The notes below the pieces were generated by a model. The model made no database searches. It was given only the letters and a program-made list of their open reading frames with translations, and was not told where the DNA came from. Below, in pieces: positions 1,717 to 22,167 of a stretch of DNA of 64,000 bases. The stretch comes from Candidatus Spongiisociaceae bacterium (lineage in GTDB: Bacteria; Actinomycetota; Acidimicrobiia; Spongiisociales; Spongiisociaceae), in NCBI GenBank assembly GCA_965262915.1, contig OZ253564.1:1888001-1952000 (forward strand), written 5' to 3'. A program made the translations under genes and the position numbers. Each line of letters begins with the position of its first letter. The stretch's first letter is position 1.

Positions 1717-1751
1717 GTTTCACGATACGGTACTGTTCCGCATCGTAGCAC
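1717..1751. promoter_or_regulatory. Tandem 17-bp imperfect palindromic operator (GTTTCACGATACGGTAC-T-GTTCCGCATCGTAGCAC) in the proV/fhs divergon
   Basis: Same motif and spacing at 22133-22167 and 21960-21994. Confidence 0.7.
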
Positions 1752-1805
1752 GCGACGGATTAGCATGGCATCCGCATCAGCACCGACATCTCTCGCGGAG
1801 ACTCC

Positions 1806-3575
1806 ATGAGCGCCGGCAAAAGCTTCCCCTCCGATCTCGAGATCGCCCAAGCCGCCACACCGAGACCCATAGCCGAGATCGCCGAATCGATCGGTATCCG
1901 TCCCGGCGAGTTGATCCCCTACGGTTCCACCAAGGCCAAGGTCCACCTGGACATCCTCAAGCGGATCGGAAGCAACCCGACCGGCAGGTACGTGGACGTG
2001 ACCGCGGTCACGCCGACCCCGCTGGGCGAGGGGAAGACGACCACCACCATCGGTCTGGTGCAGGGTTTGGGGGCTCTGGGCAAGAAGGCCATTGCCACCA
2101 TCCGCCAACCGTCGATGGGTCCCACCTTCGGGATCAAGGGCGGTGCGGCCGGTGGTGGTCACAGCCAGGTCATACCAATGGACGAGTTCAACCTGCACCT
2201 CACGGGCGACATACATGCCATCAGCGTGGCGCACAACCTGGTGGCCGCCGCCATCGACGCCCGCTGGTACCACGAGCGGAGGCTGAGCGATTCCCAACTC
2301 GAGGCTCTCGGCATAGAGCGCCTGGACATCGATGTGTTCCAGACGCGCTGGCGGCGGGTGGTGGATGTCAATGATCGGGCGTTGCGCAATGTAGTGGTCG
2401 GTCTCGGAGGACGGATAGACGGCCGGCCTAGAGAGACGGGCTATGACATCACGGTCGCCTCGGAACTGATGGCGATCCTGGCTCTTGCCGACGGTAACGA
2501 CTATGCCTCGGCGCTACGCAACCTCCGGAACCGTTGCGCCCGCGTCGTCATTGGCAATGACAAGGGCGGCCGGCCGATCACTCTGGAGGACTTGGGGGTG
2601 GCGGGTGCGGTGACGGTGCTCATGCGCGACACCCTCCACCCGACCCTGATGCAGACGCTGGAGGGCCAGGCCGCCTTCGTCCACGCCGGGCCGTTTGCCA
2701 ACATCGCCCACGGGAACTCCTCGATCCTGGCCGATCGAGTAGCTCTTCAACTGGGCGACTACGTGATCACGGAATCCGGGTTCGGGTCCGACATGGGCAT
2801 GGAGAAGTTCATCGACATCAAGTGCCGGGTCTCCGGGTTGGTCCCCGATGCCGTGGTTCTCGTGGCGACGGTGAGGGCTCTCAAGACGCACGGAGGCGGT
2901 CCCAAAGTAGTGGCCGGGCGAGCGCTCGATGAGGCCTACACCAACGAGAACCTCCCGCTGCTGCAGGCCGGGTTGACCAACCTTGTTGCTCACATCGAGG
3001 GAGCTCGCCGATTCGGGTTGCGAGTGGTGGTGGCGGTGAACTCGTTTCCCACCGACACCCGGAACGAGATTGATACCGTGAAGCGGGCGGCTCTCGAGGC
3101 CGGGGCGCTTGCGGCGGTGACCGCCTCGCACTGGGCCGACGGGGGGAGTGGGGCTACGGACCTGGCCCGGGCTGTGATCGATGCCTGCGAGGAACCCAAC
3201 GACTTCCGGTTCCTCTATCCGCTGGAACACTCCATCAAACAGAAGATCGAGACCGTCGCCACCGATGTGTACGGCGCCGCCGGAGTGGAGTACTCGCCGC
3301 GGGCGGAGCGGGACATCTCCGGGTTCGAGAAGGACGGATTCGGTTACCTCCCCATATGCATGGCCAAGACACCCCTGTCGATTTCCCACGATCCGAAGCT
3401 GAAAGGGCGCCCCAGCGGGTACCGGCTGCCGGTCCGCGAGGTGAGAGCATCCGTAGGGGCAGGGTTCCTGATTCCGATCTTGGGGGCGATCAGCACCATG
3501 CCCGGCCTTGGCACCAAGCCGGCCTTCATGAACGTCGACATCGACGAGGACGGCAAGATCGTTGGGCTCTTCTGA
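1806..3575 (+). CDS. fhs: Formate--tetrahydrofolate ligase
   Basis: TPTPLGEGKTTT, GIKGGAAGGG, VHAGPFANIAHG, CMAKTPLS motifs; 589 aa. Confidence 0.97.
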   Translation: MSAGKSFPSDLEIAQAATPRPIAEIAESIGIRPGELIPYGSTKAKVHLDILKRIGSNPTGRYVDVTAVTPTPLGEGKTTTTIGLVQGLGALGKKAIATIRQPSMGPTFGIKGGAAGGGHSQVIPMDEFNLHLTGDIHAISVAHNLVAAAIDARWYHERRLSDSQLEALGIERLDIDVFQTRWRRVVDVNDRALRNVVVGLGGRIDGRPRETGYDITVASELMAILALADGNDYASALRNLRNRCARVVIGNDKGGRPITLEDLGVAGAVTVLMRDTLHPTLMQTLEGQAAFVHAGPFANIAHGNSSILADRVALQLGDYVITESGFGSDMGMEKFIDIKCRVSGLVPDAVVLVATVRALKTHGGGPKVVAGRALDEAYTNENLPLLQAGLTNLVAHIEGARRFGLRVVVAVNSFPTDTRNEIDTVKRAALEAGALAAVTASHWADGGSGATDLARAVIDACEEPNDFRFLYPLEHSIKQKIETVATDVYGAAGVEYSPRAERDISGFEKDGFGYLPICMAKTPLSISHDPKLKGRPSGYRLPVREVRASVGAGFLIPILGAISTMPGLGTKPAFMNVDIDEDGKIVGLF

Positions 3576-4146
3576 CTCGGTCCGCGAGCATGCGCACGAG
3601 CGGATCGCTCTCATCCGGTACCTAGTGGTCTGCCTGCAAGATGATTCGGCGCGCCCTGCTTGCCATCGACGCCCCTCGCCGCGTTCCGCCTCCTCGACGT
3701 ACCGCTGCGGGTACGCCTTCGTCGGCGGGCCTCGCGAGGAACGCCGCTGCCGGCGCATGCCGCACCACCATCTCACAGACAGACCACTGGTCGACTGTCT
3801 CGACCTCGATCGGTCTGCGCAGTTCTGGGGTCCGCTCCTCGGCTTGCAGCCCGGGCGTCGGCTCGACAACTACCTGTTCATGGGTTCCGCCCTCCCCGGA
3901 TGCGATCTGGTTCTCCAACTCGTGGACCGGGTCACGACCGACAAAAGTCCCATCCATTTCGATATCGAAGGGCCGAATACGGAGGACTTCGAGAAGATCG
4001 TGGCCCGCGCGGAGCAACTCGGTGGCACAATCTTGGAGACAGTCGAGGAGGCCGAGTACACGTTGACGGTCATGACCGATCCTGACGGTAACGAGTTCTG
4101 TGTGAACCGGGTGCCATCAGGAGTGCCCGGCGGTAGCGACTCGTAG
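3562..4146 (+). CDS. VOC/glyoxalase family protein carrying an in-frame 55-codon MITE insertion (start uncertain)
   Basis: VDCLDLDRSAQFW...KSPIHFDI...AEQLGG...VMTDPDGNEFC; the N-terminal strand IRYL is separated from VDC by the repeat at 3622-3790. Confidence 0.8.
   Translation: MGSSDSVREHAHERIALIRYLVVCLQDDSARPACHRRPSPRSASSTYRCGYAFVGGPREERRCRRMPHHHLTDRPLVDCLDLDRSAQFWGPLLGLQPGRRLDNYLFMGSALPGCDLVLQLVDRVTTDKSPIHFDIEGPNTEDFEKIVARAEQLGGTILETVEEAEYTLTVMTDPDGNEFCVNRVPSGVPGGSDS
3622..3790. mobile_element. MITE family A (165 bp + 4-bp target; TIR TGGTCTGYCTG...CAGACAGACCA)
   Basis: Flanked by CTAG/CTGG; near-identical copy at 40959-41127 and diverged inverted copy at 46406-46574. Confidence 0.85.
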
Positions 4147-4195
4147 CCGGCGGAGCACAACGCCCGTCGGGAGCGAAGGAAAAGGAGGTGTTCGA

Positions 4196-6079
4196 ATGCC
4201 GAAGGCGAAGCTTCCGCGTCTTACCACCCCGTATGTCAGGCGCGGCGGTGAGTTGGCGCCGACCACGTGGGATGAGGCGCTTACCGTCGCCGCGGCCGGG
4301 CTTGCGGCTCACAGCGGCCGTTCGTACGGGATGTTCTCGTGTTCCAAGGCCACCAACGAGATGAACTTCCTGGCCCAGAAGTTCTCCCGGATCGTCTTGG
4401 GGTCCAACAACATCGACTCGTGCAACCGCACCTGACACGCTCCCTCCGTCGCCGGTCTGGCGGCAGTTCTGGGACTGGGAGGCGGGACCTCATCCTACGA
4501 GGAGATCGAGACCACCGATGTGATCCTCCTGTGGGGTTCCAACGCGCGCGAGGCGCACCCGATCTTCTTCCACCACCTCATGAAGGGTGTGCGTAACGGC
4601 GCCACCATGTACGCGGTGGATCCGCGGCGGACCACCTCGGCTATGTGGGCAGATGTCTGGTTGGGGATCGACGTGGGTTCCGATATCGCTCTTGCCAACG
4701 CGGTGGGGCGCGAGATCATCGCGTCCGGCCTACACAACCAGGCGTTCATCGACCACGCCACCTACGGGTTCGAGGCTTATGCCGAAGCCGTCGAGCCCTG
4801 GACTCCGGAGCGGGGTTCCGAAGTGACGGGCCTTCCGGCCGGGGTGATCCGCCGGATGGCCCACGACTATGCAACGGCGGAGCAGGCGCAGATCTGCTGG
4901 ACGTTGGGCATCACCGAGCACCACAACGCCACCGACAACGTACTGGCCCTCATCAACCTGGCCCTGCTCACCGGTCATGTCGGTCGGTACGGCTCCGGTT
5001 TGGTGCCCATCAGAGGCCAGAACAACGTGCAGGGCGGCGGCGACATGGGTGCGCTGCCCGACAAGCTGCCCGGCTTCCAGGATGTCGAGGACCCGGTGGC
5101 CAGAGGCAAGTTCGAGGCGCTGTGGGGTCGATCCGTTCCCGACCGGGCCGGGAAGCACATTTCCTTGATGCTCGAGGCCATGGAGCACAAGGAGATCACC
5201 GCCCTGTACGTGATCGGCGAGAACCCCGCACAGTCCGAGGCCCGTTCGGACCATGTACGGGAGATCCTGTCGGGGCTCGAATTCATGCTGGTGCAGGACA
5301 TGTTCATGACCCGGACCGCCCAGCTGGCCGATGTCGTACTTCCCGCGGCGGCGGGATGGGCGGAAACGGAGGGCACCGTGACGTCCTCCGAGAGGCGGGT
5401 ACAGCGGGTCCGGAGGGCCCTCGATCCCCCCGGGGACGCCAAGGACGACCTCGAGATCATCTCCGCGCTCGCCGACCGGATGGGCAAAGGCTGGGGGTAC
5501 CCCACTGGCGAGGAGGTGTGGGACGAACTGAGAAGTCTGTCGCCGCTGCACGGGGGCATGTCGTACCGGCGGCTCGAAGAGTCAGGTGGTCTCCAATGGC
5601 CCTGCCCCGACGAAGACCATCCGGGCACGCTGTTCCTCCACGGTGGGCTCTGGGAGGATCCCATGCCCCGGGATCCGGTCCCGTTCATGCCCACTCCGTG
5701 GGCGCCCCCGGTGGACGAGCTGACCGAGGAGTTTCCCATCCGTCTCACCACGGGACGTCGCCTCGACTCCTACAACACCGGAGTCCAATCAGGCGGATAC
5801 GGCTCACCCCTGCGGGTCGCCGCGGCCATCGAGATGGCGCCGGAGGACGGCGCGGCGCTTGCTCTGTCGGAGGGCGAGATGGTCAGCGTTACCTCGAGGC
5901 GGGGAACCCTCGAAGTTCCGGTGTTCTTCCATCGGTCTCTCCGTCCCGGACTGGCCTTCATGGCGGTCCACAATCCCGACGAGGCAGATGTGAACCTGCT
6001 CACCGTGGATGTGTGGGATCCGAAGTCGGGTACCGCGGAGTTCAAAGCCACCGCGGTCCGTGTAGAACCCGTTGCCTAG
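4196..6079 (+). CDS. fdhF: Selenocysteine-containing Mo/W-bisPGD formate dehydrogenase catalytic subunit (UGA 4433-4435 = Sec), ~627 aa
   Basis: ORFs 4196-4435 and 4520-6079 are in the same frame. IDSCNRT-U-HAPSVAGL matches the FdhF active site; RGQNNVQGGGDMG; strong RBS AAGGAGGTG. Confidence 0.93.
4436..4466 (+). promoter_or_regulatory. Bacterial SECIS element
   Basis: Hairpin GUCGCC-GGUCU-GGCGGC starting 12 nt after the in-frame UGA, with a GU-containing loop like the E. coli fdhF SECIS. Confidence 0.75.
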
Positions 6080-6181
6080 GAGGGTGGTGTGAAACCCCTT
6101 CACGGCCCGTCGACCGATGACATAATGCCTGTTCAGAGGAAGACGGGCCGTTGCTCCCACCGTTTTAGACCACCTTCCTAG
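6076..6181. mobile_element. MITE family B (~102 bp; TIR GAGGGTGGT...ACCACCTTC) with CTAG duplication at the fdhF stop codon
   Basis: CTAG at both ends; homologous copies at 17331-17437, 32545-32762 and 11893-11963. Confidence 0.88.
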
Positions 6182-6205
6182 GAGGATCCCATCGACCTGC
6201 GTCTC

Positions 6206-7987
6206 ATGTCCGCAGTACCGACTCCTGTTGAGAGGGAGGCGGTCGATGACTTGCTCGGAGCGCCCCGCTCGTCCTGGGAAGGTGGCACGCTGCAGTCCCA
6301 CGACCTCCGCGTCGCGTTCGGAGGTTACCGCCGGTCGCTCGAGAACCGTCACATGCTGCTGCCGACCCTTCACGCCGTACAGGATCGGATCGGGTGGATA
6401 AGCAAAGGAGCTCTCAACTACATATGTGAGCGGTTGGCGGTGCCACCGGCCGAGGCCTACGGGGTGGCCGGTTTCTACGCGTTGCTGGCCTTGGAGGAGC
6501 GTCCCTCTCGGGTTGCCCATGTCTGCGACGACGTGGCCTGTGGTGCAGTCGGTGGTAACGACATCCTCGCCGACCTGGAAGGTCGACCGGATATCCATCC
6601 GAGCCCGTGCCTCGGCCAATGCGACCGGGGTCCGGCCGTTTTCCTGCAGCGGGCCGGCGACGAGGATGCCATCCTGGTGGGAGCAACGTCCCAGCGGGTG
6701 TTGGCCGCCCTGGAGGGCGACGCGTTGCCGCTTCCTACGGTGACAGTCCCGCAACGGGGGGACCCGTCACTGAAGCTGCTCCGGCGGATCGGTGTGGTCG
6801 ATCCGACCTCGTTGGACGGCTACCGGGCCTCCGGTGGCTACGAAGCGCTCCTGCGAGTTCTCGAGATGGGCCCCGGGCAGGTGATCGCCGAGATAAAGGC
6901 TGCCAACCTGCGGGGACGGGGTGGAGCCGCCTTTCCGATGGGTATCAAGTGGGATGCCGTTGCCCGCTCCGCGGAGACGCCCAGCTACGTGATCTGCAAC
7001 GCCGACGAGTCCGAGCCGGGCACCTTCAAGGACCGGGTCCTTATGGAGGGCGACCCCTTTGCCCTGGTCGAATCGATGACCATTGCCGGGTTGACCGTCG
7101 GTGCCGAACTCGGCTACCTCTATATCCGGGCCGAGTACCCCGTGGCGCAGGCCCGCATGTGCCAAGCCATCGCTTCGGCGCGCGGCGCCGGCCTGTTGGG
7201 GGAGGACGTTTCGGGTTCCGGCCGATCGTTCGACATCGAGGTCCGGCGAGGGGGTGGCGCATATATCTGCGGTGAGGAGACCGCCCTGATGAACTCGATC
7301 GAAGGCAAGCGGGGAGAGCCCCGCAACAAGCCGCCGTTCCCCACCCAGGTGGGCCTGTTCGGACGCCCCACGGTCATCAACAACGTGGAGACGCTGGTCA
7401 ACGTGCTCGACATAGTTCTCGAAGGGGGGGCGGCCTACGCCGAGATCGGAACCGGGGAGTCGACCGGGCCGAAGCTCTTCTGCCTGGCCGGCGCGGTTGG
7501 CAGCCCGGGGGTGTACGAGGTTGAGTTCGGACAGACGCTGGGCTCGCTCATCGAGCTGGCCGGCGGGATCACGGGGACGGGCCACCTGGGTGCGGTGATG
7601 CTGGGCGGAGCGGCTGGAGTCTTTGTCGGAGCGCAACACCTGGACATGCCGCTGACCTTCGAGCATGCGCGGGCCCGCAACGCCACCCTCGGGTCCGGGG
7701 TGGTCCTGGTATTCGACGACGACACCGACTTCCGTGCCATATCCCGCCGGATCGCCCGGTTCTTCCGGGACGAGTCGTGCGGCCAATGCGTACCGTGCCG
7801 GGTCGGCACCGTCCGCCAGGAGGAGTTGCTGGCCCGCCACCTGGCGGGCGGGCCTTTCGAGGAGCAGCTCTTCGACGATCTGGCCCGCGTCATGATGGAC
7901 GCGTCGATCTGCGGGCTGGGACACACCGCCTCGACTGCCATCCGGTCGGCTGTCGATCTGGGCCTTCTGGGGGATTCCGGTGGCTGA
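6206..7987 (+). CDS. Fused NuoE-NuoF-like (FdsG/FdsB) diaphorase subunit of NAD-linked formate dehydrogenase
   Basis: N-term VCDDVAC/CLGQC (2Fe-2S); LRGRGGAAFP, CNADESEPGTFKDR, GAYICGEETAL, ESCGQCVPCRVG, SICGLG. Confidence 0.92.
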   Translation: MSAVPTPVEREAVDDLLGAPRSSWEGGTLQSHDLRVAFGGYRRSLENRHMLLPTLHAVQDRIGWISKGALNYICERLAVPPAEAYGVAGFYALLALEERPSRVAHVCDDVACGAVGGNDILADLEGRPDIHPSPCLGQCDRGPAVFLQRAGDEDAILVGATSQRVLAALEGDALPLPTVTVPQRGDPSLKLLRRIGVVDPTSLDGYRASGGYEALLRVLEMGPGQVIAEIKAANLRGRGGAAFPMGIKWDAVARSAETPSYVICNADESEPGTFKDRVLMEGDPFALVESMTIAGLTVGAELGYLYIRAEYPVAQARMCQAIASARGAGLLGEDVSGSGRSFDIEVRRGGGAYICGEETALMNSIEGKRGEPRNKPPFPTQVGLFGRPTVINNVETLVNVLDIVLEGGAAYAEIGTGESTGPKLFCLAGAVGSPGVYEVEFGQTLGSLIELAGGITGTGHLGAVMLGGAAGVFVGAQHLDMPLTFEHARARNATLGSGVVLVFDDDTDFRAISRRIARFFRDESCGQCVPCRVGTVRQEELLARHLAGGPFEEQLFDDLARVMMDASICGLGHTASTAIRSAVDLGLLGDSGG

Positions 7988-8963
7988 AGTCACGCTGACC
8001 ATCGACGGGTCGCAGGTCTCGGTGAGGTCCGGGTCCACCATCCTCGACGCCTGCCGGGCTACGGACAACGACCAGCCCACCCTGTGCTACCTCGACAACC
8101 TCACGCCGGTCAACGTGTGCCGGGTGTGCGTGGTCGAGGTGAAGGGGAGCCGCATCCTGGTGCCGTCCTGCAGCAGGACCGCCGAGCAGGGAATGGTCGT
8201 GTCCACCGACACCGAACGGGTGCGACACTCCCGAAAGATGGTCTACGAGTTTCTCGCCTCGTCGGTAGACCTCGGTCTGGTGGACGAGCAGACCGCCCGC
8301 TGGATGAAGGACTATGGATGCGATCCTGATCGCTACGGTCGTCCGGCCGGGCCGGTCGACGACCGGGACGAGCGGGTGGCCGGCCATCATCACGTGGGCG
8401 ACGGGGCCGAGGCAGAGACGGTTCACCAGCCGGTCAAGGTGGACAACGAACTGTACGTGCGCGACTACTCCCGCTGCATCCTCTGTTACAAGTGCGTGGA
8501 GGCGTGCGGGGAGGACGCCCAGAACACCTTCGCCATCGCCGTGGCAGGCCGCGGGTTCGACGCCCGGATCTCCACCGAGTTCGACACGGGACTGACCGAG
8601 GGGGCCTGCGTCTTCTGCGGCAACTGCATTGGCGTGTGTCCAACGGGCGCCCTCATGTTCCGCAGCGAGTACGAACTCAGGTCAGCGGGTCTGTGGCAGC
8701 AGGATCGCCAGAGTGTCACCCGGACCATATGCTCCTATTGCGGGGTCGGTTGCAACCTCGAGCTGCATGTCCAGGACAACAGGATCGTGAAGGTCACCTC
8801 ACCGATCGACCACTCGGTCACCTCTGGCCATCTATGCATCAAAGGCCGCTTCGGATACGAATATGTCCAGGAACTGGGCGACCTCGGCGTCACACCAATC
8901 GATGAGGTTCTGAGACGGGCGCGCGTGCCCGACGCGGGAAGCGGGGTCCGTGACGACCTATAG
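7980..8963 (+). CDS. NuoG/FdsA N-terminal-like Fe-S subunit (2Fe-2S, 2x4Fe-4S, C-terminal Molybdop_Fe4S4 domain)
   Basis: CRVCVVE..SC, CILCYKCVEAC, CVFCGNCIGVCP, TICSYCGVGC...LCIKGRFG. Confidence 0.92.
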   Translation: MAEVTLTIDGSQVSVRSGSTILDACRATDNDQPTLCYLDNLTPVNVCRVCVVEVKGSRILVPSCSRTAEQGMVVSTDTERVRHSRKMVYEFLASSVDLGLVDEQTARWMKDYGCDPDRYGRPAGPVDDRDERVAGHHHVGDGAEAETVHQPVKVDNELYVRDYSRCILCYKCVEACGEDAQNTFAIAVAGRGFDARISTEFDTGLTEGACVFCGNCIGVCPTGALMFRSEYELRSAGLWQQDRQSVTRTICSYCGVGCNLELHVQDNRIVKVTSPIDHSVTSGHLCIKGRFGYEYVQELGDLGVTPIDEVLRRARVPDAGSGVRDDL

Positions 8964-9026: not shown

Positions 9027-10304
9027 ATGGGCCGGGACGGTCCTGAAACGACTTCTTTGACGGCCCGCGCGCCGCGTTCGAGTCCTGGTTCAGGGGACGA
9101 ACGGCTCACCGGTTCGGCCACCGCGGCGGCCTTGTTCGGTGTGGTTATCGTGGTGACCCACGGGTTCGGGAACAGCCTCGTACCGGCTCTCCTGCCGCGT
9201 ATCGCAGAGTCTTTTGACGCGGGATACGGCGTTCTCGGTCTGGCCGTGGCCGCCGGGCTGATCGCCTACGGCGTGGGAGCAGCCCTTGGGATAAGAATCG
9301 TCGACCGTGTCCCGCCGAGGGCCTTGCTGGTTACCTGCCTCGCGGTTTGCGGCGCCGGCCTCCTGGCCGTATCCGGGGCAGGTTCGCCAGGAGTACTGGC
9401 CTTGTGTGTAGTCGTTATCGGCTTGGCATCACCGATCAGTTGGTCGGTGACGGTCTACTTCGTCGGTCGGGTGGTCGGCTCCGCCGCCCACGGCCGCGTC
9501 TTGGCCGTCGCCGCGGCCGGAGCCGGTGTGGGCAACGGAATAAACGGCGTTTTCGTACAGATGTTGACAGCGCGCGGGCAGTGGAGGTGGGCCTTCGTCA
9601 TCGCCGGAGGTCTGGCCGCAGCCATGGTGGTCGTAACCTTGCTGGTGCTTCGCCGTCCGATCGAGCCGCCGGCCCGGGCGGCTGGGACCGGTCGAGAGGG
9701 GGAAGCCTGGCGGCGAATCTGGTCGGAGCCGGCCGGGCGGCTCGTGATCCTGATGAGCATGGTGGCGGGTATCGGAACCTTCACGTTCTCCGCCTACCTC
9801 TCGGAAGTGGCGCTGGATGAAATGCTGGTGAGCCCGCTGGCGGCCGCAACCCCGTGGTGGTTGGCCTCGGCGGTAGGGATTGCGGTTGCCCTGCCGATAG
9901 GCTTGATAAGCGACCGCGGGTCCCCCGTCGGGGTTATGGCGATAACTGCTCTCACCTACGGGGCCTCCCTGACGATACTGGTGTTCACCTGGTCGTACCC
10001 GGCTCTCTTGATGGCCACCTTCGGGTTCGCGGTTTTCAGCTACCCGATCTGGGGGCTGTTCGGGCTGGTCGCTCACCGGAGCTTCCCACCCGAACTGGCG
10101 GTTCGAGCCGTGTCGGGCGGGTTGGCTGTAGCAGCATGCTCGGCCATGGCGGGGGTAACCGCGGCCGGTTGGTGGATAGACAGGACCGGAAGCTTACGAG
10201 GTCCGGCAATCGTGCTTGCCTTGATGATTACCGTGGTTGGGGTCCGGCTCCTTTGCCTCCACCGGGCTGCGTCGCCGAGGATCGGACACTTGTGGAAGAC
10301 GTAA
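9027..10304 (+). CDS. MFS transporter
   Basis: ~12 hydrophobic segments; motif-A-like GIRIVDRVPPR and GLISDRGSP. Confidence 0.8.
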   Translation: MGRDGPETTSLTARAPRSSPGSGDERLTGSATAAALFGVVIVVTHGFGNSLVPALLPRIAESFDAGYGVLGLAVAAGLIAYGVGAALGIRIVDRVPPRALLVTCLAVCGAGLLAVSGAGSPGVLALCVVVIGLASPISWSVTVYFVGRVVGSAAHGRVLAVAAAGAGVGNGINGVFVQMLTARGQWRWAFVIAGGLAAAMVVVTLLVLRRPIEPPARAAGTGREGEAWRRIWSEPAGRLVILMSMVAGIGTFTFSAYLSEVALDEMLVSPLAAATPWWLASAVGIAVALPIGLISDRGSPVGVMAITALTYGASLTILVFTWSYPALLMATFGFAVFSYPIWGLFGLVAHRSFPPELAVRAVSGGLAVAACSAMAGVTAAGWWIDRTGSLRGPAIVLALMITVVGVRLLCLHRAASPRIGHLWKT

Positions 10305-10490
10305 CCGTCTGGGACGTCGGTGGCCGGCGCCAGGTTCAGATCGAGGACCCCGATTTTCTCGCACTTCCCGAGTACCTGTGTGCGCGCGATGTATCCCGTG
10401 TCAGGGTGGGCCAGTTGCGTTACACCTTCATTTGCAATCCCCGAGGCGGGATTCTGAACGATCCCGTGCTGCTGCGGGTGGGCCGAGGGA
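10286..10490 (+). pseudogene. Internal fragment of a GcvT/DmdA-like aminomethyltransferase
   Basis: LVEDVTVWDVGGRRQVQIEDPD...RDVSRVRVGQLRYTFICNPRGGILNDPVLLR; no start and no C-terminus. Confidence 0.7.
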
Positions 10491-10506
10491 TGCCCGTGGG
10501 GATCCC

Positions 10507-11631
10507 TCATTGCTGCTGTCCCCCCTCTTCGGGGTGGCTGCCGGACCGGATGTCGATCACGATGGCGCCCACATGACCCTTGCGCAGGAAGGTTTCCTGG
10601 GCCGAGCGGAGTTGCGCCAGAGGGTAGGAGGTCGCTACCAAAGGCCGGATCTCGCCGTTTTCTATGTAGCGGACCAGGTTGGCGAACACGCCGGGAGGCA
10701 CCACCGTGCAGCCGTGCATGGTGATGTCCCGTAAGTAGAGGGTGCGCAGGTCGAGCCGCACCATCGGCCCGCCGATGGCCCCTGCCACGGTGTACCGCCC
10801 ACCCCGGCGGATGGTGTCGAACAACGCGGGGAACTGCGGGCCTCCCACCACATCGGCCAGCACGTCCACACCGCCGGTCCGCTCGAGGATCTCGCTCGCC
10901 AGCGAGGACGAATTCCTGTCCAGCACGTGGTCTGCTCCGGTCAGCTTCCTCAAGAGCGACGCCTTGGACTTCGAGGAGATGGCAACAGTGGTGGCCCCCC
11001 GCCGGCGCGCCAGCTGGATCAGGGCGTTCCCCACCCCGCCCGAGGCCCCGGTGACCACCACCATATGTCCTTCCTTCACGCCCGCTCGTTCCAGCATGTG
11101 TTCGGCGGTCGAGTATGAACAGGGGAACCCGGCCAGTTCCATATCGGTCAAGCCGCTCCGAATCGGGTGGGCGTTTCCGGCCGGAACGGTCACGTACTCG
11201 GCATAGCCTCCGTCGCGTTCCGAACCGAGATACCCTGCTTTAGCCAGGTCGCCCTGCGGATCCCGCAACCACGCGTCGATCAGAACCCGCTCACCGACCC
11301 GATCCCCGTCCACCGAGGAACCCACCTCCACGATCCGCCCCACCGGATCGGCGCCCTGGATGAGCGGAAAGGTCAAGCCCCCGGTCCACGACCCGTCCGC
11401 GTCGGTCGTGGTCGTTTCCTCTCCGGTGGCCGTGCTCACCGACCTCGAGTACCAGCCGGTCCTGGTGTTGATATCCGTGTTGTTCATGCCACACGCGCCG
11501 ACCTCCACCAGTACCTCGTCCCGATCAGGGATCGGAACCGGCGCGTCGGTCACGTACTCCAGTCGGTCCAGCCCTCCATGACCTCTCAGCACGACAGCTC
11601 TCATGCCGTCCAGACGCTTACGGGAAGTCAT
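10507..11631 (-). CDS. MDR/zinc-binding alcohol dehydrogenase family oxidoreductase
   Basis: MRAVVLRGHGG, GMNNTDINTRTGWY, PLIQGADPVG, TGASGGVG. Confidence 0.9.
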   Translation of the reverse strand: MTSRKRLDGMRAVVLRGHGGLDRLEYVTDAPVPIPDRDEVLVEVGACGMNNTDINTRTGWYSRSVSTATGEETTTTDADGSWTGGLTFPLIQGADPVGRIVEVGSSVDGDRVGERVLIDAWLRDPQGDLAKAGYLGSERDGGYAEYVTVPAGNAHPIRSGLTDMELAGFPCSYSTAEHMLERAGVKEGHMVVVTGASGGVGNALIQLARRRGATTVAISSKSKASLLRKLTGADHVLDRNSSSLASEILERTGGVDVLADVVGGPQFPALFDTIRRGGRYTVAGAIGGPMVRLDLRTLYLRDITMHGCTVVPPGVFANLVRYIENGEIRPLVATSYPLAQLRSAQETFLRKGHVGAIVIDIRSGSHPEEGGQQQ

Positions 11632-11634
11632 AGG

Positions 11635-12160: not shown

Positions 12161-13428
12161 CTAGCCGCTGTCGACGGCGCTGCCCGACGGAGCCTCCGTC
12201 GGGGCCGGGGGTTCGGTCGTTGTCGGGGTTTCGGTGGTTGTCGAGGTGGTGGATGTCTGCGGGGGAGGCGGTTGGTGCCGCGCGCAGTTCCCGGAGATGA
12301 TGTCGACGATCCGATCGAATCGCCCGCCCTCGGGAACCGGTACCGGTGCGCCGTCATCGTTGAGCAGATGCGGATGGAACGCCCATCCAACGATCCGGTC
12401 GGCATCGAAGTCGATCTGCAACACTCCGGTTTCTCCCGTGATTCCCCATCTCGGATGCCAGACGAAGTTGCCGAGCGAGTAGGCGACCAGCCTGCCGTCG
12501 GCGAACTCGACCGGCTGCAACACGTGCGGATGGTGACCGATGACCGCATCGGCGCCGGCGTCCAGCAGCTCTCGGGCGAACGACCGCTGCGCGGCGCTGG
12601 GGCAGGTGCTGCGCTCGATGCCCCAGTGGACCAGCGCGATCACCACGTCGGCCGCCCAGGCGGCGTCCTCGATGCTCTCGACAACTCGAGACGGCGGGCG
12701 GGCCGACGCGATACCCGGCGAGTCGGGACCCGCGGGGAAACTCCAGGGGACGATCATGGACACGCCGACGAAAGGACGCTCGTGGCCCCTTCGACGTCGA
12801 GAACCCGGTAGCGGTAGGCCTCGACATCGGTTGACCCCGCGCCGAGCGCCGCCACCCCGGCCGCCTCCAACAACTCGACGGTGTCCACCAGAGCGGTGGA
12901 GCCATAGTCCTTGGCGTGATTGTTCGCCAAGGATGCGACATCGACCCCGGCAGCCGCAATCCGCCGGGCCGCTGACGGCGGAGCTCGAAAGACGTATGTC
13001 TTGTCAGCCGGTACACCACGATCGCTGATCACCATCTCGGAGTTCACGACGGCGATATCAGCCGACGCCAGAGGCGGTTCGATGAACTCGAACGGGTCGA
13101 CGCCTCGGGGCTCGGTACGATCCATCAGCACATCGCCACCCGCGAGCAGCGTCCATTCCCTGGAGGGTTCGGGAGGCGGAACGGTGGTTGCGGTCACCGC
13201 CGAGGAAGGCGGGGGCGGTGAGGCCGTACTCGCGTTCTCCTCCGGGGAAGGGTCGGGGAGTGGAACCGTGGTTGTGGTCATCTCCGAGGAGGGCGGGGCG
13301 GTGGGAGAGGGGCCGGTATCCACCGGGCTCGGGCCGCCGGCCGTACACCCGCCGGCTAGTAGCGCCACGGCCAGCAGTGCAAGAGACAGGCGGACCGATG
13401 CTCGCGTCGAGTGTCCGGCCGCCTTCAT
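12161..13428 (-). pseudogene. CapA (PGA_cap metallophosphoesterase-like) lipoprotein, frameshifted near 12780
   Basis: Lipobox LLAGGC, P/T linker, AGGDVL, SLANNHAKDYG in one frame; VHWG, GHHPH, YSLGNF in another. Confidence 0.85.
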
Positions 13429-13685
13429 GGGAGAATCGTATCCGGCCTTCGCCCTCGCCCGGTCACAACCGAGGATATGGACCGGGTCTCGCGATGGGTT
13501 GGAGGTTCCCCTGGTGGATCCCGGACGTGGCCGACCGGACCGCAGGGCAAACAACCACATTCCGGACCCCGATGGGGTGGAAGAGAACCCGCGACCGGGG
13601 ACGGCGGAGAACCCATCCGTCTCACGATATCCCTGGCAGTGACCCTCCCTCGGGTGTCCAGCGACCGGAATGTGACCATCCGGTT

Positions 13686-13744
13686 GTGCCACGTCAGCGG
13701 ACGACGGGCCAACCAATTGACCCGCTCTTTGAGCACCCTCTCGG
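13686..13744. mobile_element. Partial MITE family D
   Basis: TGCCACGTCAGCGGACGACGGGCCAACCA...GAGCACCCTC matches 46621-46677 and the reverse complement of the 50429 copy. Confidence 0.65.
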
Positions 13745-13804
13745 GTTGATCCGTTGCCTGACTTCCCGTGTGGGACGCGCCGGTGTGGTTGAGGCCGGAA
13801 CGCC

Positions 13805-15291
13805 TCACGGTGGCCGTTGGCAACTGTCGTCGAGGAAAGCACCGGTCTGGTTGGTGGTGCGCCTGAGAGCCTGTGTGACAGCCTCGCGTACCTGGGCGAT
13901 CGGTGCGTCGCCGGGCTGGAATTCGGGGGGGATGAAGTTGACTGTGACGATTCTCGATGTATCGAGCATGTCTGCCAGGTCGACAAGTTCGTCGAGACGG
14001 TCACGCGGGATGTCGGTGTTGATGTGATCGGTGATGATGTCGGCCAGCGCCACATAGTTGCGAACCATTCGTATGGACGGAACCTGGTCGATGAGCGCTT
14101 CGATGACGCATCGTTGGCGGGTCATGCGGTGCCAGTCCGTACTCTTGGTTCGGGAACGCACGTATCCGAGCGCCGCCAAGCCGTCGAAGTGGTGGTCACC
14201 CGGTTCCACGACGATGTCGATGTGCGGGCCATCGGGCACGATGGGCTTGATCCGGTCGTTGATCGACTCGGTAACGTGCACGTCGATGCCGCCGGACAGG
14301 TCGATGACCTCGACGAAGCCCACCATGCCGATGAGCACGTAGTACTGGATGTCGAGGCCGGTCAGTTGGGCGAGTGCCGATTTGATGGTATGGCCGGCCG
14401 TGTCCTCGACGTTCGGGAAGGCCTCGGGGAACCTCAGCCCCAGGCCGTAGATCTCGTTGGCGATGCCCGGATACCCGTCGGGCCATTGCTCGGCTGCGGG
14501 GGTCCCTTCGGGGAAGGTGACGTGATGCCAGTTGCGGGGTACGTTGAACGCCGCCGCGTCGCCGGTGGCCATATCGATCGAGAGCACGATGATCGTGTCG
14601 GTTCTCACACCGTGGCGGTCGAACCCGGTGTCGCTGCCGAGTAGGGCGATGGTGAGGCGATCGGCCCCGTCCCAGGTCGGAGGTGGTGCTGTCGTGACGG
14701 AAGCGGTGGCGGAGGAGTTGTGGTCGGGGGAGCCGCGACCGGGGCAGCCACGGTCGTCTGCGCAGGAGCGGTCTAGGTCGTCGGCGCCGCCGTGGTGGGA
14801 ACCGGCGTCCCGGTGGCGGTTCGGGTTCCGGTGGCGTCGAAGACCGTGGTCAGCATCTCGAGCTGGGTCATGGCGTATCCGACGACCAGAACGTGGGGCG
14901 CGGCGATGATCACGGCCAGGGAGGCGAGCGTGATCACGGAGAGGAATCGGTGGGTCACGCAAGGGCACTGCGGTGGGGCGCGGCGAGCCGCGGTCCTGTA
15001 CGCGTCGACCGCGATTCCGATACGAAGAGCCAGGACGCAGACGGTCCCGGCGATGACGATCCAGAGCCACGACGGGGTCACGCTCCAGGCCAGCAGCGTG
15101 GCCGGACGGCGCGTGGCGACATAGATCACGCCGGCGGCAGCCGCCCCGAGGGTTCCGAATGTCAGGACTGCGGCGCGGCCGTTGCGGTGTCCGAAGTGCC
15201 CCAAGCCCGGCCACGCCGCGGAGAGAGCCACCGCGGCCAACGGCTCGGGACCGCGCCGTGTGGACTCCCCCAATACCTGATCCACAGCCAC
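13805..15291 (-). pseudogene. LytR-CpsA-Psr (LCP) family protein, frameshifted in the P/T linker near 14775
   Basis: N-terminal TMs (WPGLGH) in 14773-15291; LLGSD...RTDTII...VPRN...YVRSR..DWHRMTRQRCVI in the 13805 frame. Confidence 0.85.
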
Positions 15292-17388: not shown

Positions 17389-17437
17389 TATGTCATCGGC
17401 CGACGGGCCGTGAAGGGGTTTTGCACCGCCCTCCCAG
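17331..17437. mobile_element. MITE family B (103 bp, CCAG duplication) inserted in the 5' end of capA
   Basis: Reverse complement of the 6076-6181 element. Confidence 0.88.
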
Positions 17438-17645: not shown

Positions 17646-18641
17646 TCAGGTTTGCTCCCGGGCGAGGCCGCGGCGGCGGACGATCTCGGCGGAGATGGCG
17701 GGCACCACTTCGTGGAGGTCGGCGATCACGGCCCAGTCGGCCTTGGTGACCATCGGGGCGTCCCGGTCGGTGTTGATGGCCAGGACGTTCTTGGCGTTCA
17801 TCATCCCGACCCAGTGTTGGATGGCGCCCGAGATACCGCAGGCTATATAGAGGTCAGGCGCCACGACGGTGCCGGTCTGGCCCACCTGGAACTTGTGGTT
17901 CTTCCATCCGTTGTTGGTCACCACCCTCGAGCAGCCCACCGCGCCTCCCAGCAGGTCGGCCAGTTCTTCGATGATGGAGAAGCCCTCGACGTTTCCTACG
18001 CCCCGCCCGCCGCTCACCACCACCGGGGCGGTGGCCAGGGTGATGCCCTCCGAGATCGTCACCCGGTCCTGCACCATGGTGACGGAGGCTGACTCGTCGA
18101 GGAGGGGCGTGAACACCGACACGCGACCCGCGCCCGGTACGCGGGCATGGGCGGCCTCCGTGCTGTGCGGGGCGAGCGTGACCAGCTTGGTGGGCGCGGA
18201 GAGCCTGGCCCGCTCGTGGAGGCTCCCGCCCCAGCGGACCCGGGTCATGAGCCAGTCCTCGCCGTCGGGTTCTATCTCCAGGCAGTTGGCAACCATCGCG
18301 AGGTCCAGGCGGGCCCCGGCGTGGGCCATGACCTCGTTACCACGGTCGGTTCCGGTTGCCATCACCGCGGCCGCACCCACGGAACGAGCCACCTGCACGA
18401 GGCTGTCGGCCCATGCGTCGGGCCCGTAGTCCCTGAGCAGTTCGTGCCGGACCACATGGACTTCCTCGGCGCCGAAGACGTCCATTCCGGCGGCCGGCCC
18501 GTCCGCGCCCTCGCCGATCACCGCCGTATGTAGAGAGGCGCCCATCGCCGCCGCCAGCCGCCTGGCCCCGGTGAGCCCTCCCAGGGTGGTCTCATCGATC
18601 CGGCCTCGATCATGCTCGACGAGGTACAGGAACACGCTCAT
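17646..18641 (-). CDS. etfA: Electron transfer flavoprotein alpha subunit
   Basis: VVSGGRG, QVGQTG, YIACGISGAIQH, AINTD; ATG 18641 overlaps the etfB stop. Confidence 0.95.
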   Translation of the reverse strand: MSVFLYLVEHDRGRIDETTLGGLTGARRLAAAMGASLHTAVIGEGADGPAAGMDVFGAEEVHVVRHELLRDYGPDAWADSLVQVARSVGAAAVMATGTDRGNEVMAHAGARLDLAMVANCLEIEPDGEDWLMTRVRWGGSLHERARLSAPTKLVTLAPHSTEAAHARVPGAGRVSVFTPLLDESASVTMVQDRVTISEGITLATAPVVVSGGRGVGNVEGFSIIEELADLLGGAVGCSRVVTNNGWKNHKFQVGQTGTVVAPDLYIACGISGAIQHWVGMMNAKNVLAINTDRDAPMVTKADWAVIADLHEVVPAISAEIVRRRGLAREQT

Positions 18642-19405
18642 ATCAGGCCCAGACCTTCCAGGATGTCGACGATGGCGGGTGCGGCCTCCGCTCCCTCCCC
18701 GAGAACGTCGACCCTGGTTCCGGCGGCCGGGGGTGTGACCAGGATCACCTTGGACTGCCCGCTCGATCCCGGTACGGGCTCGATGCGCGATATCGGGGCC
18801 CGCCGGGCGGCCATCCTCCCTCGCAGGGTCGGGTAGCGGGGCAGGTTGATGCCCTCCTTCACCGCCACCACCGCCGGGAGAGGCAGCCGGTAGACCTCCG
18901 AACCGGAAGGTGTCTCGCGCCGGGCGGTGATCCCTCCCTCCTCGGTGTCTATACCCTTGATCCCACTCACGATGGGCCGTCCCAGGGTCCGGGCCACCCG
19001 GATGCCCACCTGGTAGCCGCACGAGTCGGCTGATTCGCTACCGAACAGGATCAGGTCGAACGGATCCTCCTGGCCGGTCTCCATCTCGCCTATGGCGGCG
19101 GTGAGTGCCTTGGCGGTGGATACCGGATCCCAGTCGGGGATGTCGGTGGGCAGCAGCACCGCCGACGTCGCACCGACCGCCACGGCCGACCGAAGCTGTT
19201 CCTCGGCTTCCGGGGGACCCAGCGTCATCACGGTCACGGAGCCGCCCTCCCGTTCGACGATCCGGACCGCCTCCTCCACGGCGCACTCCTCGTGGGGGCT
19301 CACGGTGAACCCCAGCAGGGACGAGTCGATGTCCTGGCCGTCCGGGGTCAGGACGATCTTCGCTCCCGGCGCCGGGACCCGCTTGACGCACACCAGGATC
19401 CGCAC
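18638..19405 (-). CDS. etfB: Electron transfer flavoprotein beta subunit
   Basis: MRILVCVKRVP, EECAVEEA, NLPRYPTLRG. Confidence 0.95.
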   Translation of the reverse strand: MRILVCVKRVPAPGAKIVLTPDGQDIDSSLLGFTVSPHEECAVEEAVRIVEREGGSVTVMTLGPPEAEEQLRSAVAVGATSAVLLPTDIPDWDPVSTAKALTAAIGEMETGQEDPFDLILFGSESADSCGYQVGIRVARTLGRPIVSGIKGIDTEEGGITARRETPSGSEVYRLPLPAVVAVKEGINLPRYPTLRGRMAARRAPISRIEPVPGSSGQSKVILVTPPAAGTRVDVLGEGAEAAPAIVDILEGLGLI

Positions 19406-19425
19406 GACCTACCTCCGGACCGCCA

Positions 19426-21936
19426 TCAGCGCTTCATCCGGCTGTCGTCCGGATCGAACAGCGGTCGGGACCCGACCCGCGCCACCTTGACCGGGAACAA
19501 CTCGTTCTGGTACATGATCCGGAGTTCCTTCCCCTCCTCCGCCATGTCCGTGGGCAGGTACCCGATCAGTATGTAAGTGTACAGGGACGGTGCGGCGCCG
19601 GCCGAGGTGACCCGCGAAACGCGGCCCTTGGAGTCCACGATCCGCTCGCCGTCCGGAGTGAGGATCGGCTCGTTGCCACCCATCGGGAAGCGGGGGATAC
19701 CCGAGTCGGATACGTGGCTCTCCATCGTCAGGGTGCAACACACCGCCGCGGGGCCCGCGGCCCGGGCAGCGAGATAGGCTTCCTTGCCGATGAAGTCGGC
19801 GCTCTTGACCCTGGGGCGGGCCAGACCGGCCTCGACCGGGTTGTACTCCGATTCCAGTTCGGCCCCCATGAGACGGTAACCCTTCTCAAGGCGGGCCGTG
19901 GTTCCGTAGACGCCGGCGCCGACCGGTACCACCCCGAACTCCTGGCCGGCCTCCCACAGGGCCTGCCACAGCATGGGGGCGTGTTCCATGTTCGTGTACA
20001 CCTCCCATCCGAGGTCGCCCACATAGGAGATGCGGAACATGGTGACCGGAATCGAATCGATCGTGGCGTGTTTGAAGGTGCCGTAACGGAACCCCTCGTG
20101 GGAGATGTCGTCGGACGTGAGCTTCTGAACCAGGCTGCGGGCCTGAGGTCCCCACACTCCGATGGTGGACAGGGACGAGGTGATATCGGTGAAGGTGACG
20201 GATCCGTCCTCGGGGAGCCATTTGCGGAACCAGTAGGAGTCGCGCCCGCCGTCGAAGCCTCCGGTCACCACCCTGAAATGGTCTTCTCCCATCCGCAGCA
20301 CGGTCAGGTCGGATCGGAAGCCGCCTCTCTCGGTGAGGAGTGGCGTGTATATCCCTCTTCCCGGCGCATAGTTCACCTGGTTGACCGTCATGTGCTGCAT
20401 GTAGTCGAGCGCGCCCGGTCCCTTGATGTCGAAGATGGCGAACGCGGTCAGGTCGACCATCCCCACCCTGTCCCGCAGCGCCAGGTGCTCGGCGTTCTGG
20501 ATGGGTGACCACCAGCGGGAGTCCCACTCGTGGGGGCGTTGGGGGATCCGGTCGGCGTACTCCTCCAGCAGGGGGGTGTTGGACTCATACCAGTGGGGCC
20601 GTTCCCATCCTCCGGCCTCGAAATAGACGGCCCCGAGCGCCGACGTGGTGGTGTGGAGGGTACTGACCCGGCTGTTGCGTCGACTGTCCCACTGCTCCCG
20701 TGGGTGGACGATCCCGTAGGTCTTGTTGAAGTGCTCCGCGCACCGGGAGAGGATGTGCTGCTCGGACTTCATGTAGGGATAGAAGCGGGCGATGTCCGAG
20801 GCGTGGGGATCGATCTCGGGGTAGCCCTGGGTCATCCACTCGGCCAGCGCCCGCCCCGTGCCGGGGCCTTCCTTGATCCAGATCGCCGCGCAGGACCACA
20901 GGTTCTTCACCTCCGGGGTCTCTCCGACCAGGGGCATCGCGTCCGGCGTCAGCGAGAGCAGTCCGTTGATGCCGTACTTGATCTCGGCATCACCCAGCAA
21001 CGGCATCAGCTCCATGGCCTGCTCGAGTTGGGGATCGAAGTCGTCCATGGTCAGCGGCAACTCCGTGGGCGACAGGCGGGCTTCCTCGATCGAGGGGATG
21101 GTGTCGGGGTGGTGGAAGATCGGCCGGTGGGCATAGGACCCTACCTCCATGGAGCCGCCCGTCTGGCGCTCGTAGCAGAAGGTGTCCGCGTCGCGGACGA
21201 TCGGATAGCCGATCTCGCTGTTGGTGGCCGCCAGCACTTCGAGCGGACCCACGTCGATCATCTGGTGTACGGCCGGCGTGAGAGGGATCGAGGCACCGGC
21301 CATCGTGGCCAGGCGAGGTGACCAGACCCCACAGGCGATGACCACGTAGTCGCAGGTGATCCTCCCTTTGTTGGTGACCACCGCCCGGATCCGTGACCGC
21401 TTCGTCTCGATGTCCAGTACCTCCGTTACCGGGTGGACCGACAGGGCGCCCTTGCCCTGCGCGTACTCGCGCATCAGGGTCCCGGCGCGCAGGGAGTCGA
21501 CCACCGACACGCCGGGCGTATACCATCCACCCAGGATCACCGACTCGTCCAGGAAGGGCACCAACTCCTTCGCCTCGGCCGGGCTTACCAGCCAGCTCTC
21601 GATGCCCCAGCACCTGGCCGAGGTCATGCGTCGGTTGAGTTCGTGCAACCGTTCCTCGGTGCGGGCCAACTCCAGGCCTCCCGAGGTGACGCTGACTTCC
21701 ATCTCCTCGTACTGATGCTGGCTGTCGAGGGTGAGGTGGGTCATCTCCTTGTTGTGGTCCACCGGATAGATGAAGTTGGAGGCGTGCCCGGTGGAGCCGC
21801 CGGGGTTGGGCAGGGGGCCTTTGTCGAGCTGGACGATGTCTCGCCAGCCGAGCGCGGCGAGGTGTTTGACCACCGAGTTACCGACGATTCCGGCGCCGAT
21901 GACTACCACCTGGGCGCTGGTTGGGAGATCGCTCAT
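19426..21936 (-). CDS. FAD-dependent GcvT-family dimethylglycine/sarcosine dehydrogenase-like enzyme
   Basis: VIGAGIVG, GSTGHAS (covalent-FAD His), DAO domain + GcvT folate-binding domain (ARLEKGY); 836 aa; followed by ETF genes. Confidence 0.9.
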   Translation of the reverse strand: MSDLPTSAQVVVIGAGIVGNSVVKHLAALGWRDIVQLDKGPLPNPGGSTGHASNFIYPVDHNKEMTHLTLDSQHQYEEMEVSVTSGGLELARTEERLHELNRRMTSARCWGIESWLVSPAEAKELVPFLDESVILGGWYTPGVSVVDSLRAGTLMREYAQGKGALSVHPVTEVLDIETKRSRIRAVVTNKGRITCDYVVIACGVWSPRLATMAGASIPLTPAVHQMIDVGPLEVLAATNSEIGYPIVRDADTFCYERQTGGSMEVGSYAHRPIFHHPDTIPSIEEARLSPTELPLTMDDFDPQLEQAMELMPLLGDAEIKYGINGLLSLTPDAMPLVGETPEVKNLWSCAAIWIKEGPGTGRALAEWMTQGYPEIDPHASDIARFYPYMKSEQHILSRCAEHFNKTYGIVHPREQWDSRRNSRVSTLHTTTSALGAVYFEAGGWERPHWYESNTPLLEEYADRIPQRPHEWDSRWWSPIQNAEHLALRDRVGMVDLTAFAIFDIKGPGALDYMQHMTVNQVNYAPGRGIYTPLLTERGGFRSDLTVLRMGEDHFRVVTGGFDGGRDSYWFRKWLPEDGSVTFTDITSSLSTIGVWGPQARSLVQKLTSDDISHEGFRYGTFKHATIDSIPVTMFRISYVGDLGWEVYTNMEHAPMLWQALWEAGQEFGVVPVGAGVYGTTARLEKGYRLMGAELESEYNPVEAGLARPRVKSADFIGKEAYLAARAAGPAAVCCTLTMESHVSDSGIPRFPMGGNEPILTPDGERIVDSKGRVSRVTSAGAAPSLYTYILIGYLPTDMAEEGKELRIMYQNELFPVKVARVGSRPLFDPDDSRMKR

Positions 21937-21959
21937 CCCTGGCTCCTGTTCCTACCCCT

Positions 21960-21994
21960 GTTCCATATCGTGGAACCCTCTTACGATACGGAAC
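21960..21994. promoter_or_regulatory. Tandem 17-bp operator (GTTCCATATCGTGGAAC-C-CTCTTACGATACGGAAC) upstream of the dehydrogenase
   Basis: Near-perfect palindrome GTTCCA-N5-TGGAAC; same family as 1717-1751. Confidence 0.72.
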
Positions 21995-22132
21995 AGCTTA
22001 ACCGTCGTTCGGGTAGGATGTCACCGCCAGACAGGGCGGGACAGCCCCCTGAACGGCTCATCGGCCACCGGTTGGCGGGTAATCCGACCGGGCGGAGATC
22101 CGCTGGCCGGAGAGCGCCGGTTGGGGTATGCT

Positions 22133-22167
22133 GTTCCACGATGTAGAACTGTTCCGCATCCTGAGAC
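22133..22167. promoter_or_regulatory. Tandem 17-bp operator (GTTCCACGATGTAGAAC-T-GTTCCGCATCCTGAGAC) upstream of the corrinoid operon
   Basis: Aligns position-for-position with 1717-1751. Confidence 0.72.

Follow-up and report, generated by a model that had tools for sequence, protein, structure and literature searches.

The 64,000-nucleotide stretch analyzed here (the window) covers positions 1,888,001 to 1,952,000 of contig OZ253564.1, assembly GCA_965262915.1, from a Candidatus Spongiisociaceae bacterium of the Acidimicrobiia, and has a G+C content of 66%. Three of its promoter regions carry a 35-bp element composed of two adjacent 17-bp boxes with a 1-nt spacer: site A precedes fhs, site B precedes a dimethylglycine/sarcosine dehydrogenase-like gene (DMGDH) with etfBA, and site C precedes a corrinoid operon. 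A preliminary description of this DNA had reported the three tandem pairs, and all six boxes were located where it had placed them; the flanking genes are likewise those it named, i.e. a proV remnant and proW on the minus strand, fhs, the DMGDH-like gene with etfBA, and the corrinoid operon. The predicted operators and the promoter hexamers associated with them are as follows.

1717..1751, plus strand: operator A, with box A1 (1717-1733, GTTTCACGATACGGTAC) and box A2 (1735-1751, GTTCCGCATCGTAGCAC), 5' of fhs and divergent from the proV remnant; 19.2 + 18.2 bits and a tandem score of 37.4 with the relatives-only matrix introduced below
1714..1719, plus strand: -10-like hexamer TATGTT of site A, facing fhs and overlapping A1 by 3 nt, assigned by analogy with B and C
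21960..21994, minus strand: operator B, with box B1 (21960-21976, GTTCCATATCGTGGAAC) and box B2 (21978-21994, CTCTTACGATACGGAAC), ending 23 nt before the DMGDH start codon; conserved in 12/12 comparable loci
21995..22000, minus strand: -10-like hexamer TAAGCT of the DMGDH-etfBA promoter; TANNNT ends 0-1 nt before the operator in 13/13 B sites
22019-22024, minus strand: -35-like hexamer GTGACA of the same promoter, with an 18-nt spacer to TAAGCT
22133..22167, plus strand: operator C, with box C1 (22133-22149, GTTCCACGATGTAGAAC) and box C2 (22151-22167, GTTCCGCATCCTGAGAC), ending 45 nt before the mtgC-like start codon; conserved in 13/13 comparable loci
22127..22132, plus strand: -10-like hexamer TATGCT of the corrinoid-operon promoter; TANNNT ends 0-1 nt before the operator in 14/14 C sites

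Box centers within a pair are 18 bp apart at all three sites and in relatives. Calculated from the coordinates, their distance upstream of the respective start codon is 81 and 63 nt at A, 32 and 50 nt at B, and 72 and 54 nt at C. Symmetrized over 29 unique boxes from relatives, the box consensus is a 7-3-7 palindrome, GTTCCRC-RWY-GYGGAAC. The term "imperfect palindrome", applied to all boxes in the preliminary description, suits B1 and C1, which are self-complementary at 12/17 positions, and describes A1 and C2 (6/17) and especially B2 (2/17) poorly. Sites A and C agree at 26 of 35 positions, among them CACGAT and ACTGTTCCGCATC. In the promoter-proximal box the far arm is degenerate at both promoters, reading AAGAA at B and TAGNAC at C.

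Within the window the motif exceeds chance. Leave-one-out matrices built from five boxes recovered the sixth in every round, the held-out score being reached by only 3-6 of 127,968 window positions, and a scan with the full six-box matrix identified these positions as the boxes themselves (24.7-28.3 bits, with the next best window position at 12.3). A second matrix was built from 50 boxes (29 unique) of related genomes, symmetrized and containing no window sequence, and therefore provides a non-circular test that also validates site A. This relatives-only matrix placed the six boxes at ranks 1-6 in the window; scored in tandem, the three pairs reached 36.9-38.4, while the next position scored -5.5 and the best of 200 shuffles 11.5, and no fourth tandem pair was detected in the 64 kb. 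A consensus pattern including the RWY center, GTTCCRCRWYGYGGAAC, had 8 matches at up to 3 mismatches versus 2.35 ± 1.57 expected, a count reached by 0/100 shuffles.

A genome scan with the MttB-family protein and 10-kb flanks yielded 80 loci, 15 from Acidimicrobiia and 65 from Alphaproteobacteria or other Pseudomonadota. The closest relatives by MttB identity (82-92%) are metagenome-assembled genomes of Acidimicrobiia, some of them named Candidatus Spongiisociaceae (a family of Actinomycetota), and the Acidimicrobiia loci retain the order etfAB-DMGDH followed by the divergent mtgC...mtgB-metF-pabB operon. Pair B is present in all 12 Acidimicrobiia loci that include the DMGDH-mtgC spacer and pair C in all 13 that include the region upstream of mtgC. 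L001 and L069 stop short of these regions, and L003 carries other genes where DMGDH would be. At B and C the motif is thus conserved upstream of orthologs, which had been named as a test of it. An exact GTTCC-N13-GTTCCRC occurs 21 times in 13 Acidimicrobiia loci, only at the B and C locations and on the strand of the downstream gene, versus 2 matches in the 65 other loci. At a threshold of 17 bits or more, the window-box matrix finds 49 matches and 19 tandem pairs in the 15 Acidimicrobiia loci (288,667 bp), compared with 1 match and no tandem pair in the other 65 (1,073,831 bp). Across 11 spacers aligned with MAFFT, the majority base makes up a fraction of 0.89-0.90 within the operators and 0.48 between them, and identity to the window is 84% for the operators and 54% for four-fold degenerate sites in the neighboring DMGDH gene. 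Since the operators have been kept while the flanks diverged, with neighboring non-coding DNA and four-fold codon sites near saturation, the boxes are under selection.

The position of the pairs relative to the promoter is conserved as well. A TANNNT hexamer, whose only constant bases are T, A, and T, ends 0-1 nt ahead of the first box in 27 of 28 sites. In 4 loci, the window included, site B also has a -35-like (A/G)TGACA, 17-18 nt further upstream. Because operator B ends 23 nt before the DMGDH start codon, transcription must start in or before it. A pair that directly follows the conserved TANNNT would lie over the transcription start, which is the position of a repressor.

The form of the boxes resembles a published class of IclR-family sites. 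In the main text and supplementary tables of Suvorova & Gelfand 2021 (PMC8222616), the subgroup 'GTT-11-AAC', with consensus GTTYCRYW3RYGRAAC, comprises 54 orthologous groups and 1364 sites with the largest share in Actinobacteria, the PA4341 group (GGGTTCCACCCAGTGGAACC) and the Bpet0265 group (GTTTCGCTGTGCGGAAC) being listed examples. Tandem IclR sites 18-22 nt apart are reported there for 94 orthologous groups, mainly with 19-21 nt, and site centers fall mostly at -20 to -80 from the gene start. The consensus found here is likewise a 17-bp palindrome with the same arms, matching the published one at 14/14 arm positions; the tandem arrangement is common in that subgroup, and the box centers, 32-81 nt upstream, exceed the published zone by no more than 1 nt. 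The IclR-like style suggested in the preliminary description is thereby supported in arms, tandem spacing, and start-codon distance. Five of the window boxes have 0, 1, 1, 2, and 2 arm mismatches to the published consensus, and B2 has more than 2.

Within the same source, the predicted IclR regulog ROP_14880 offers the nearest match in gene content. It spans Rhodococcus, Mycobacterium, Streptomyces, Arthrobacter, Geodermatophilus, Rubrobacter, and others, and is the only group in supplementary Table 3 of PMC8222616 with Fhs, EtfA, EtfB, MetF, ProV, ProX, BetT, PabB/TrpE, FolD, PurU, SoxD, and SoxG. Among these are the kinds of genes found at A, B, and C, namely fhs, DMGDH-etfBA, an operon ending in metF-like and pabB genes, and the divergent proV; the regulog also includes DadA and GcvT, each corresponding to one part of a DMGDH-like enzyme. 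Like the present system, ROP_14880 is actinobacterial and has palindromes that are mostly in tandem, 18-19 nt apart; according to supplementary Table 1 the sites are 19-mers of the form TGTTGCGCA-T-TGCGCAACA. Its main motif has G/C at 19-mer positions 5 and 15 whereas the present boxes have C/G, and the published site variants include TGTTcCGCATTaCGgAACA (TGTTcCGCAT...CGgAACA). A degenerate ROP_14880 motif, TGTTSCRYNNNRYGSAACA, allowed up to 3 mismatches, matches 4 of the 6 boxes and has 12 window matches versus 4.9 ± 2.0 expected (1/100 shuffles reach 12); its best window matches are B1 (1 mismatch) and C1 (2), with positions 5 and 15 differing from the main published form. ROP_14880 is itself a computational prediction, 'betaine' and 'sarcosine' do not occur in the main text of PMC8222616, and the kinship of the proposed factor with that group is putative.

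We therefore favor, at a probability of about 0.65, a reading of the three 35-bp elements as predicted operators for one trans-encoded factor, most likely an IclR-family repressor acting as a dimer of dimers. The co-control by a single factor that had been proposed earlier is supported by the same tandem motif at three promoters and by its conservation at B and C. The promoters placed under the operators would be P(fhs), P(DMGDH-etfBA), and P(mtgC...mtgB-metF-pabB). From the sites, their conservation, and their position we infer that two dimers or one tetramer would occupy each pair of boxes, that protein bound there would block initiation by covering about -6 to +29, and that the repressor may be released by a metabolite of the pathway, be it glycine betaine, dimethylglycine, or a compound related to them. 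The system is best filed as a putative Acidimicrobiia counterpart of the predicted actinobacterial IclR regulon for betaine, sarcosine, and folate-linked one-carbon (C1) genes.

No gene for the factor was found in the window, in agreement with the preliminary description: none of the 151 open reading frames (ORFs) or ORF fragments (26 + 22 + 103) gave a DNA-binding Pfam domain. The suggestion to look for an IclR or GntR gene with an autoregulatory site led to no regulator in the window or in the 15 related loci, of which 81 flank ORFs and 8 further ORFs were examined. The only helix-turn-helix (HTH) ORFs in the flanks that are not transposase- or antitoxin-like are an RpiR (L003), an XRE (L009), and an HTH_23 ORF (L010); each is confined to one locus and was for that reason rejected as the cognate regulator. 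Also rejected were the ORFs lying between pairs B and C of L002 and L012, which encode an aminotransferase and fragments of GcvT and of an enolase, and a conserved 273-aa ORF at 31215-32036, which has no family match and an apparent C-terminal membrane segment.

Several observations weigh against this reading or against parts of it. A gene combining HTH_IclR and IclR domains is absent among the 151 window ORFs and the 89 ORFs of related loci, whereas the factor gene of ROP_14880 (PMC8222616) is usually adjacent with its own site; here none lies within reach. The center of the boxes is RWY (GAT/ATC) where the published one is W3, so that only the middle base fits, and the 18-nt spacing is at the edge of a published range that is mainly 19-21 nt. 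The published consensus, GTTYCRYNNNRYGRAAC, is poorly specific in the window at up to 2 mismatches (12 matches versus 6.4 ± 2.4; 4/100 shuffles reach 12), and the arms-only pattern of the present boxes, GTTCCRCNNNGYGGAAC, is at chance at up to 3 mismatches (20 versus 15.2 ± 3.4; 9/100 shuffles reach 20), which means that the signal resides in the box center and the tandem arrangement. Box B2 departs from the consensus at more than 3 positions. A sigma-70 consensus scan returned 0 promoters in both operator regions, leaving the -10 assignment to be drawn solely from conservation. Conservation covers B and C only, as the related loci stop short of fhs and thus of site A. Betaine uptake is the weakest member of the proposed regulon: the -10-like hexamer of site A is oriented to fhs and not to proV, and proV has at least three frame breaks and an internal deletion in which the stretch after Walker B is gone. 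Since several other window genes are broken too, the state of proV reflects either pseudogene decay or an assembly error.

We regard it as unlikely that the boxes instead serve a repressor from a different family, be it TetR, GntR, MarR, or a similar one, and resemble IclR sites by coincidence. TetR regulators that bind as two dimers exist, and BetI acts on choline and betaine genes; the lack of an IclR gene in the window or the related loci would also be expected in this case, and the IclR consensus is degenerate and by itself not above chance in the window. Such a coincidence is opposed by the fit to the IclR class in length (17 bp), in all 14 arm positions, in tandem spacing, and in distance to the start codons, and by the IclR regulog of the same gene content already predicted in Actinobacteria (PMC8222616). 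Binding of an activator, or a special promoter (e.g. for an alternative sigma factor) with no repressor involved, appears improbable. IclR-family factors can activate (PMC8222616) and the -10 assignment is non-experimental, but the boxes follow the conserved TANNNT and reach within 23 nt of the DMGDH start codon, leaving no room for a downstream promoter. An extracytoplasmic function (ECF)-type promoter was rejected, as a GGAAC -35 and a CGT -10 separated by 15-18 nt occur in none of the 28 sites.

That the dyad acts as RNA, in the form of a 5' leader hairpin controlling stability or translation, is very improbable. The 35-mer of window site B does fold well (-15.3 kcal/mol, z -4.16, equaled by 0/200 shuffles), but those of A (z -1.81) and C (z -1.45) do not stand out from shuffles, the two B boxes of most relatives share their central orientation, which breaks the hairpin, and compensated pairs number 0/12 and 1/10 across relatives, not above shuffles, with the variable base of C1 unmatched in C2. 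Rfam gave no match at the gathering score and only weak, unrelated ones (E 0.19-0.99), so that with no covariation, ordinary folds at A and C, and no described RNA family matched, a cis-regulatory RNA was rejected. Least credible of all is a dispersed repeat or chance similarity with no regulatory role. Loose consensus patterns do occur at background frequency; however, 12-13 species retain the elements at syntenic promoters amid scrambled flanks, and an element resembling REP (repetitive extragenic palindromic) or MITE (miniature inverted-repeat transposable element) sequences is opposed by a count of three copies in 64 kb, every one at a promoter.

Single regulators that link betaine catabolic genes are known in GbdR (AraC family, Pseudomonas aeruginosa), an activator binding upstream of promoters, and BetI (TetR family). 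Both belong to other protein families and use other site types than the IclR-like tandem sites described here. Glycine betaine demethylation by the cobalamin-dependent MtgBCD pathway has been described in aerobic marine bacteria, with Ruegeria pomeroyi as an example (PMC12478193). The parts of that route shared with the present operon are the MttB-family MtgB, the corrinoid protein MtgC, the methyl-tetrahydrofolate (THF) methyltransferase MtgD, a RamA-type activase, and DUF1638, and the MtgBCD genes are co-located with later demethylation and C1 genes, as here. That study concerns Proteobacteria, and its available text describes no regulator or operator: 'operator', 'promoter', and 'repressor' do not occur in it and 'regulator' appears only in the references. 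Our literature searches likewise found no regulator described for the corrinoid MtgBCD route, no experimental paper on an IclR regulator of betaine, sarcosine, or C1 genes, and no GTTCC/GGAAC palindromic repressor operator. In the regulogs of PMC8222616, as given in its tables, MttB (COG5598) and the corrinoid protein (COG5012) have 0 occurrences, whereas here they lie downstream of operator C.

What is new is the motif variant and the lineage in which it occurs, together with one target, the corrinoid mtgC-to-mtgB operon; the type of switch itself is ordinary, and the bacterial group has been little studied. We give about even odds to the proposal that this is the first cis-regulatory element described for the aerobic MtgBCD pathway, in which a diverged, trans-encoded IclR member would have taken over the corrinoid operon in sponge-associated and related Acidimicrobiia and coupled it, via one signal, to dimethylglycine oxidation and formyl-THF recycling. 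The coupling signal may be folate or C1 status and not the substrate. Such an arrangement suggests joint switching of betaine demethylation and folate-linked C1 oxidation in these bacteria, and it would bring the corrinoid MtgBCD route into an IclR regulog that has been published but not discussed. With the 35-bp element as bait and the motif matrix, the regulator and its complete regulon can be sought in uncultured Acidimicrobiia, among which several are named as sponge associates, and a betaine- or dimethylglycine-responsive repressor-operator pair could serve as a biosensor part.

The genes at the three sites were assigned as follows.

3..920, minus strand: proW-like permease for glycine betaine or choline (Pfam BPD_transp_1), running off the window
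920..1686 (about), minus strand: proV-like ABC ATPase remnant in three frames with an internal deletion; ABC_tran fragments in two frames
1806..3575, plus strand: fhs, formate--tetrahydrofolate ligase (Pfam FTHFS, E 1.8e-247; NCBIfam formate--tetrahydrofolate ligase)
17646-18640 (about, start not fixed), minus strand: etfA (Pfam ETF_alpha), synteny kept in relatives
18638-19405, minus strand: etfB (Pfam ETF), synteny kept in relatives
19426..21936, minus strand: DMGDH (Pfam DAO + FAO_M + GCV_T)
22213..31150, plus strand: corrinoid operon, assigned with Pfam and NCBIfam, gene order kept in relatives, comprising the seven genes below
22213-22920, plus strand: mtgC-like corrinoid protein
22913-23593, plus strand: DUF1638 protein
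23842-24933, plus strand: methyl-THF:corrinoid methyltransferase, mtgD-like
24940-26970, plus strand: RACo/RamA-type activase
26972-28510, plus strand: MttB-family mtgB-like methyltransferase
28512-29375, plus strand: MetF-like protein
29327-31150, plus strand: PabB fused to an aminotransferase class IV domain

The best NCBIfam matches of the proW-like permease are a choline ABC permease and ProW, both below cut-off. For DMGDH all NCBIfam matches are sub-threshold, so its substrate is assigned from context. Relatives in the PDB are 4yyc, 2qne, and 9yce; those of the MttB-family protein include 9yce, which bears the name 'Glycine betaine methyltransferase'. An ORF matching Pfam 'Virulence_fact' (PF13769, E 2.3e-18) lies at 23594-24022 (plus strand), after DUF1638 and before the methyl-THF methyltransferase, whose ORF it overlaps in another frame.

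Box-like sequences and rearrangements were also observed outside the three pairs. In L002 and L012 a lone C2-like box lies about 110 bp from pair B (3139-3155 and 4376-4392, respectively) and is followed by inserted DNA, beyond which pair C is complete. The inserted stretch between B and C encodes an aminotransferase and part of GcvT in L002 and part of an enolase in L012; the lone box looks like a relic of an old operator stranded by the insertion. In L003 (481-5044) the DMGDH-etfBA genes upstream of pair C are replaced by a DMGDH paralogue (28% identity), an RpiR-family regulator, and a Rieske gene encoding a ring-hydroxylating oxygenase alpha subunit; a similar oxygenase is found beyond etfA in L004 and L005. 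A single box-like 17-mer lies inside etfB of the window at 19252-19268, scoring 12.3 bits with the window-box matrix and 2.2 bits with the relatives-only matrix, and recurs at the same codon position in L002 (280-296). Further box-like 17-mers occur inside DUF1638 in three loci (L004 6452, L005 6443, and L059 6458). These lone 17-mers in coding sequence probably reflect coding constraint or chance rather than operators.

Other genes of the window are broken or otherwise noteworthy. The formate dehydrogenase alpha subunit is split and permuted over 4106-6079, 6206-7987, and 7980-8963 (plus strand): its molybdopterin C-terminal part (profile positions 159-672), broken near 4432-4520, precedes a NuoE/F-like gene, and its Fe-S N-terminal part (profile positions 1-50) follows it, which looks like the remains of a duplicated operon. 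An ORF at 9821-10573 (plus strand) with a GcvT folate-binding fragment, a C1-gene remnant, overlaps the 3' part of an MFS transporter ORF (9027-10304). The PGA_cap capsule-synthesis gene at 12164-14055 (minus strand) is split over two frames, with profile positions 1-138 and 167-252 in different ORFs. In the pyruvate-carboxylase-like gene at 50953-54629 (plus strand), the biotinyl domain (54354-54629) is out of frame with the 1167-aa body ending at 54456, which points to a frameshift near the 3' end. An ArsP-type permease and an RDD protein are fragmentary at 32632-34301 (plus strand) and intact in relatives (L004 15690-17225, 317 aa and 182 aa). A Fic/DOC-type protein with an HPFxxGNGR motif is encoded within 34174-36323 (minus strand), its L004 and L005 orthologues matching Pfam Fic, and the adjoining PIN-domain ORF may be fused to an antitoxin-like N-terminus.

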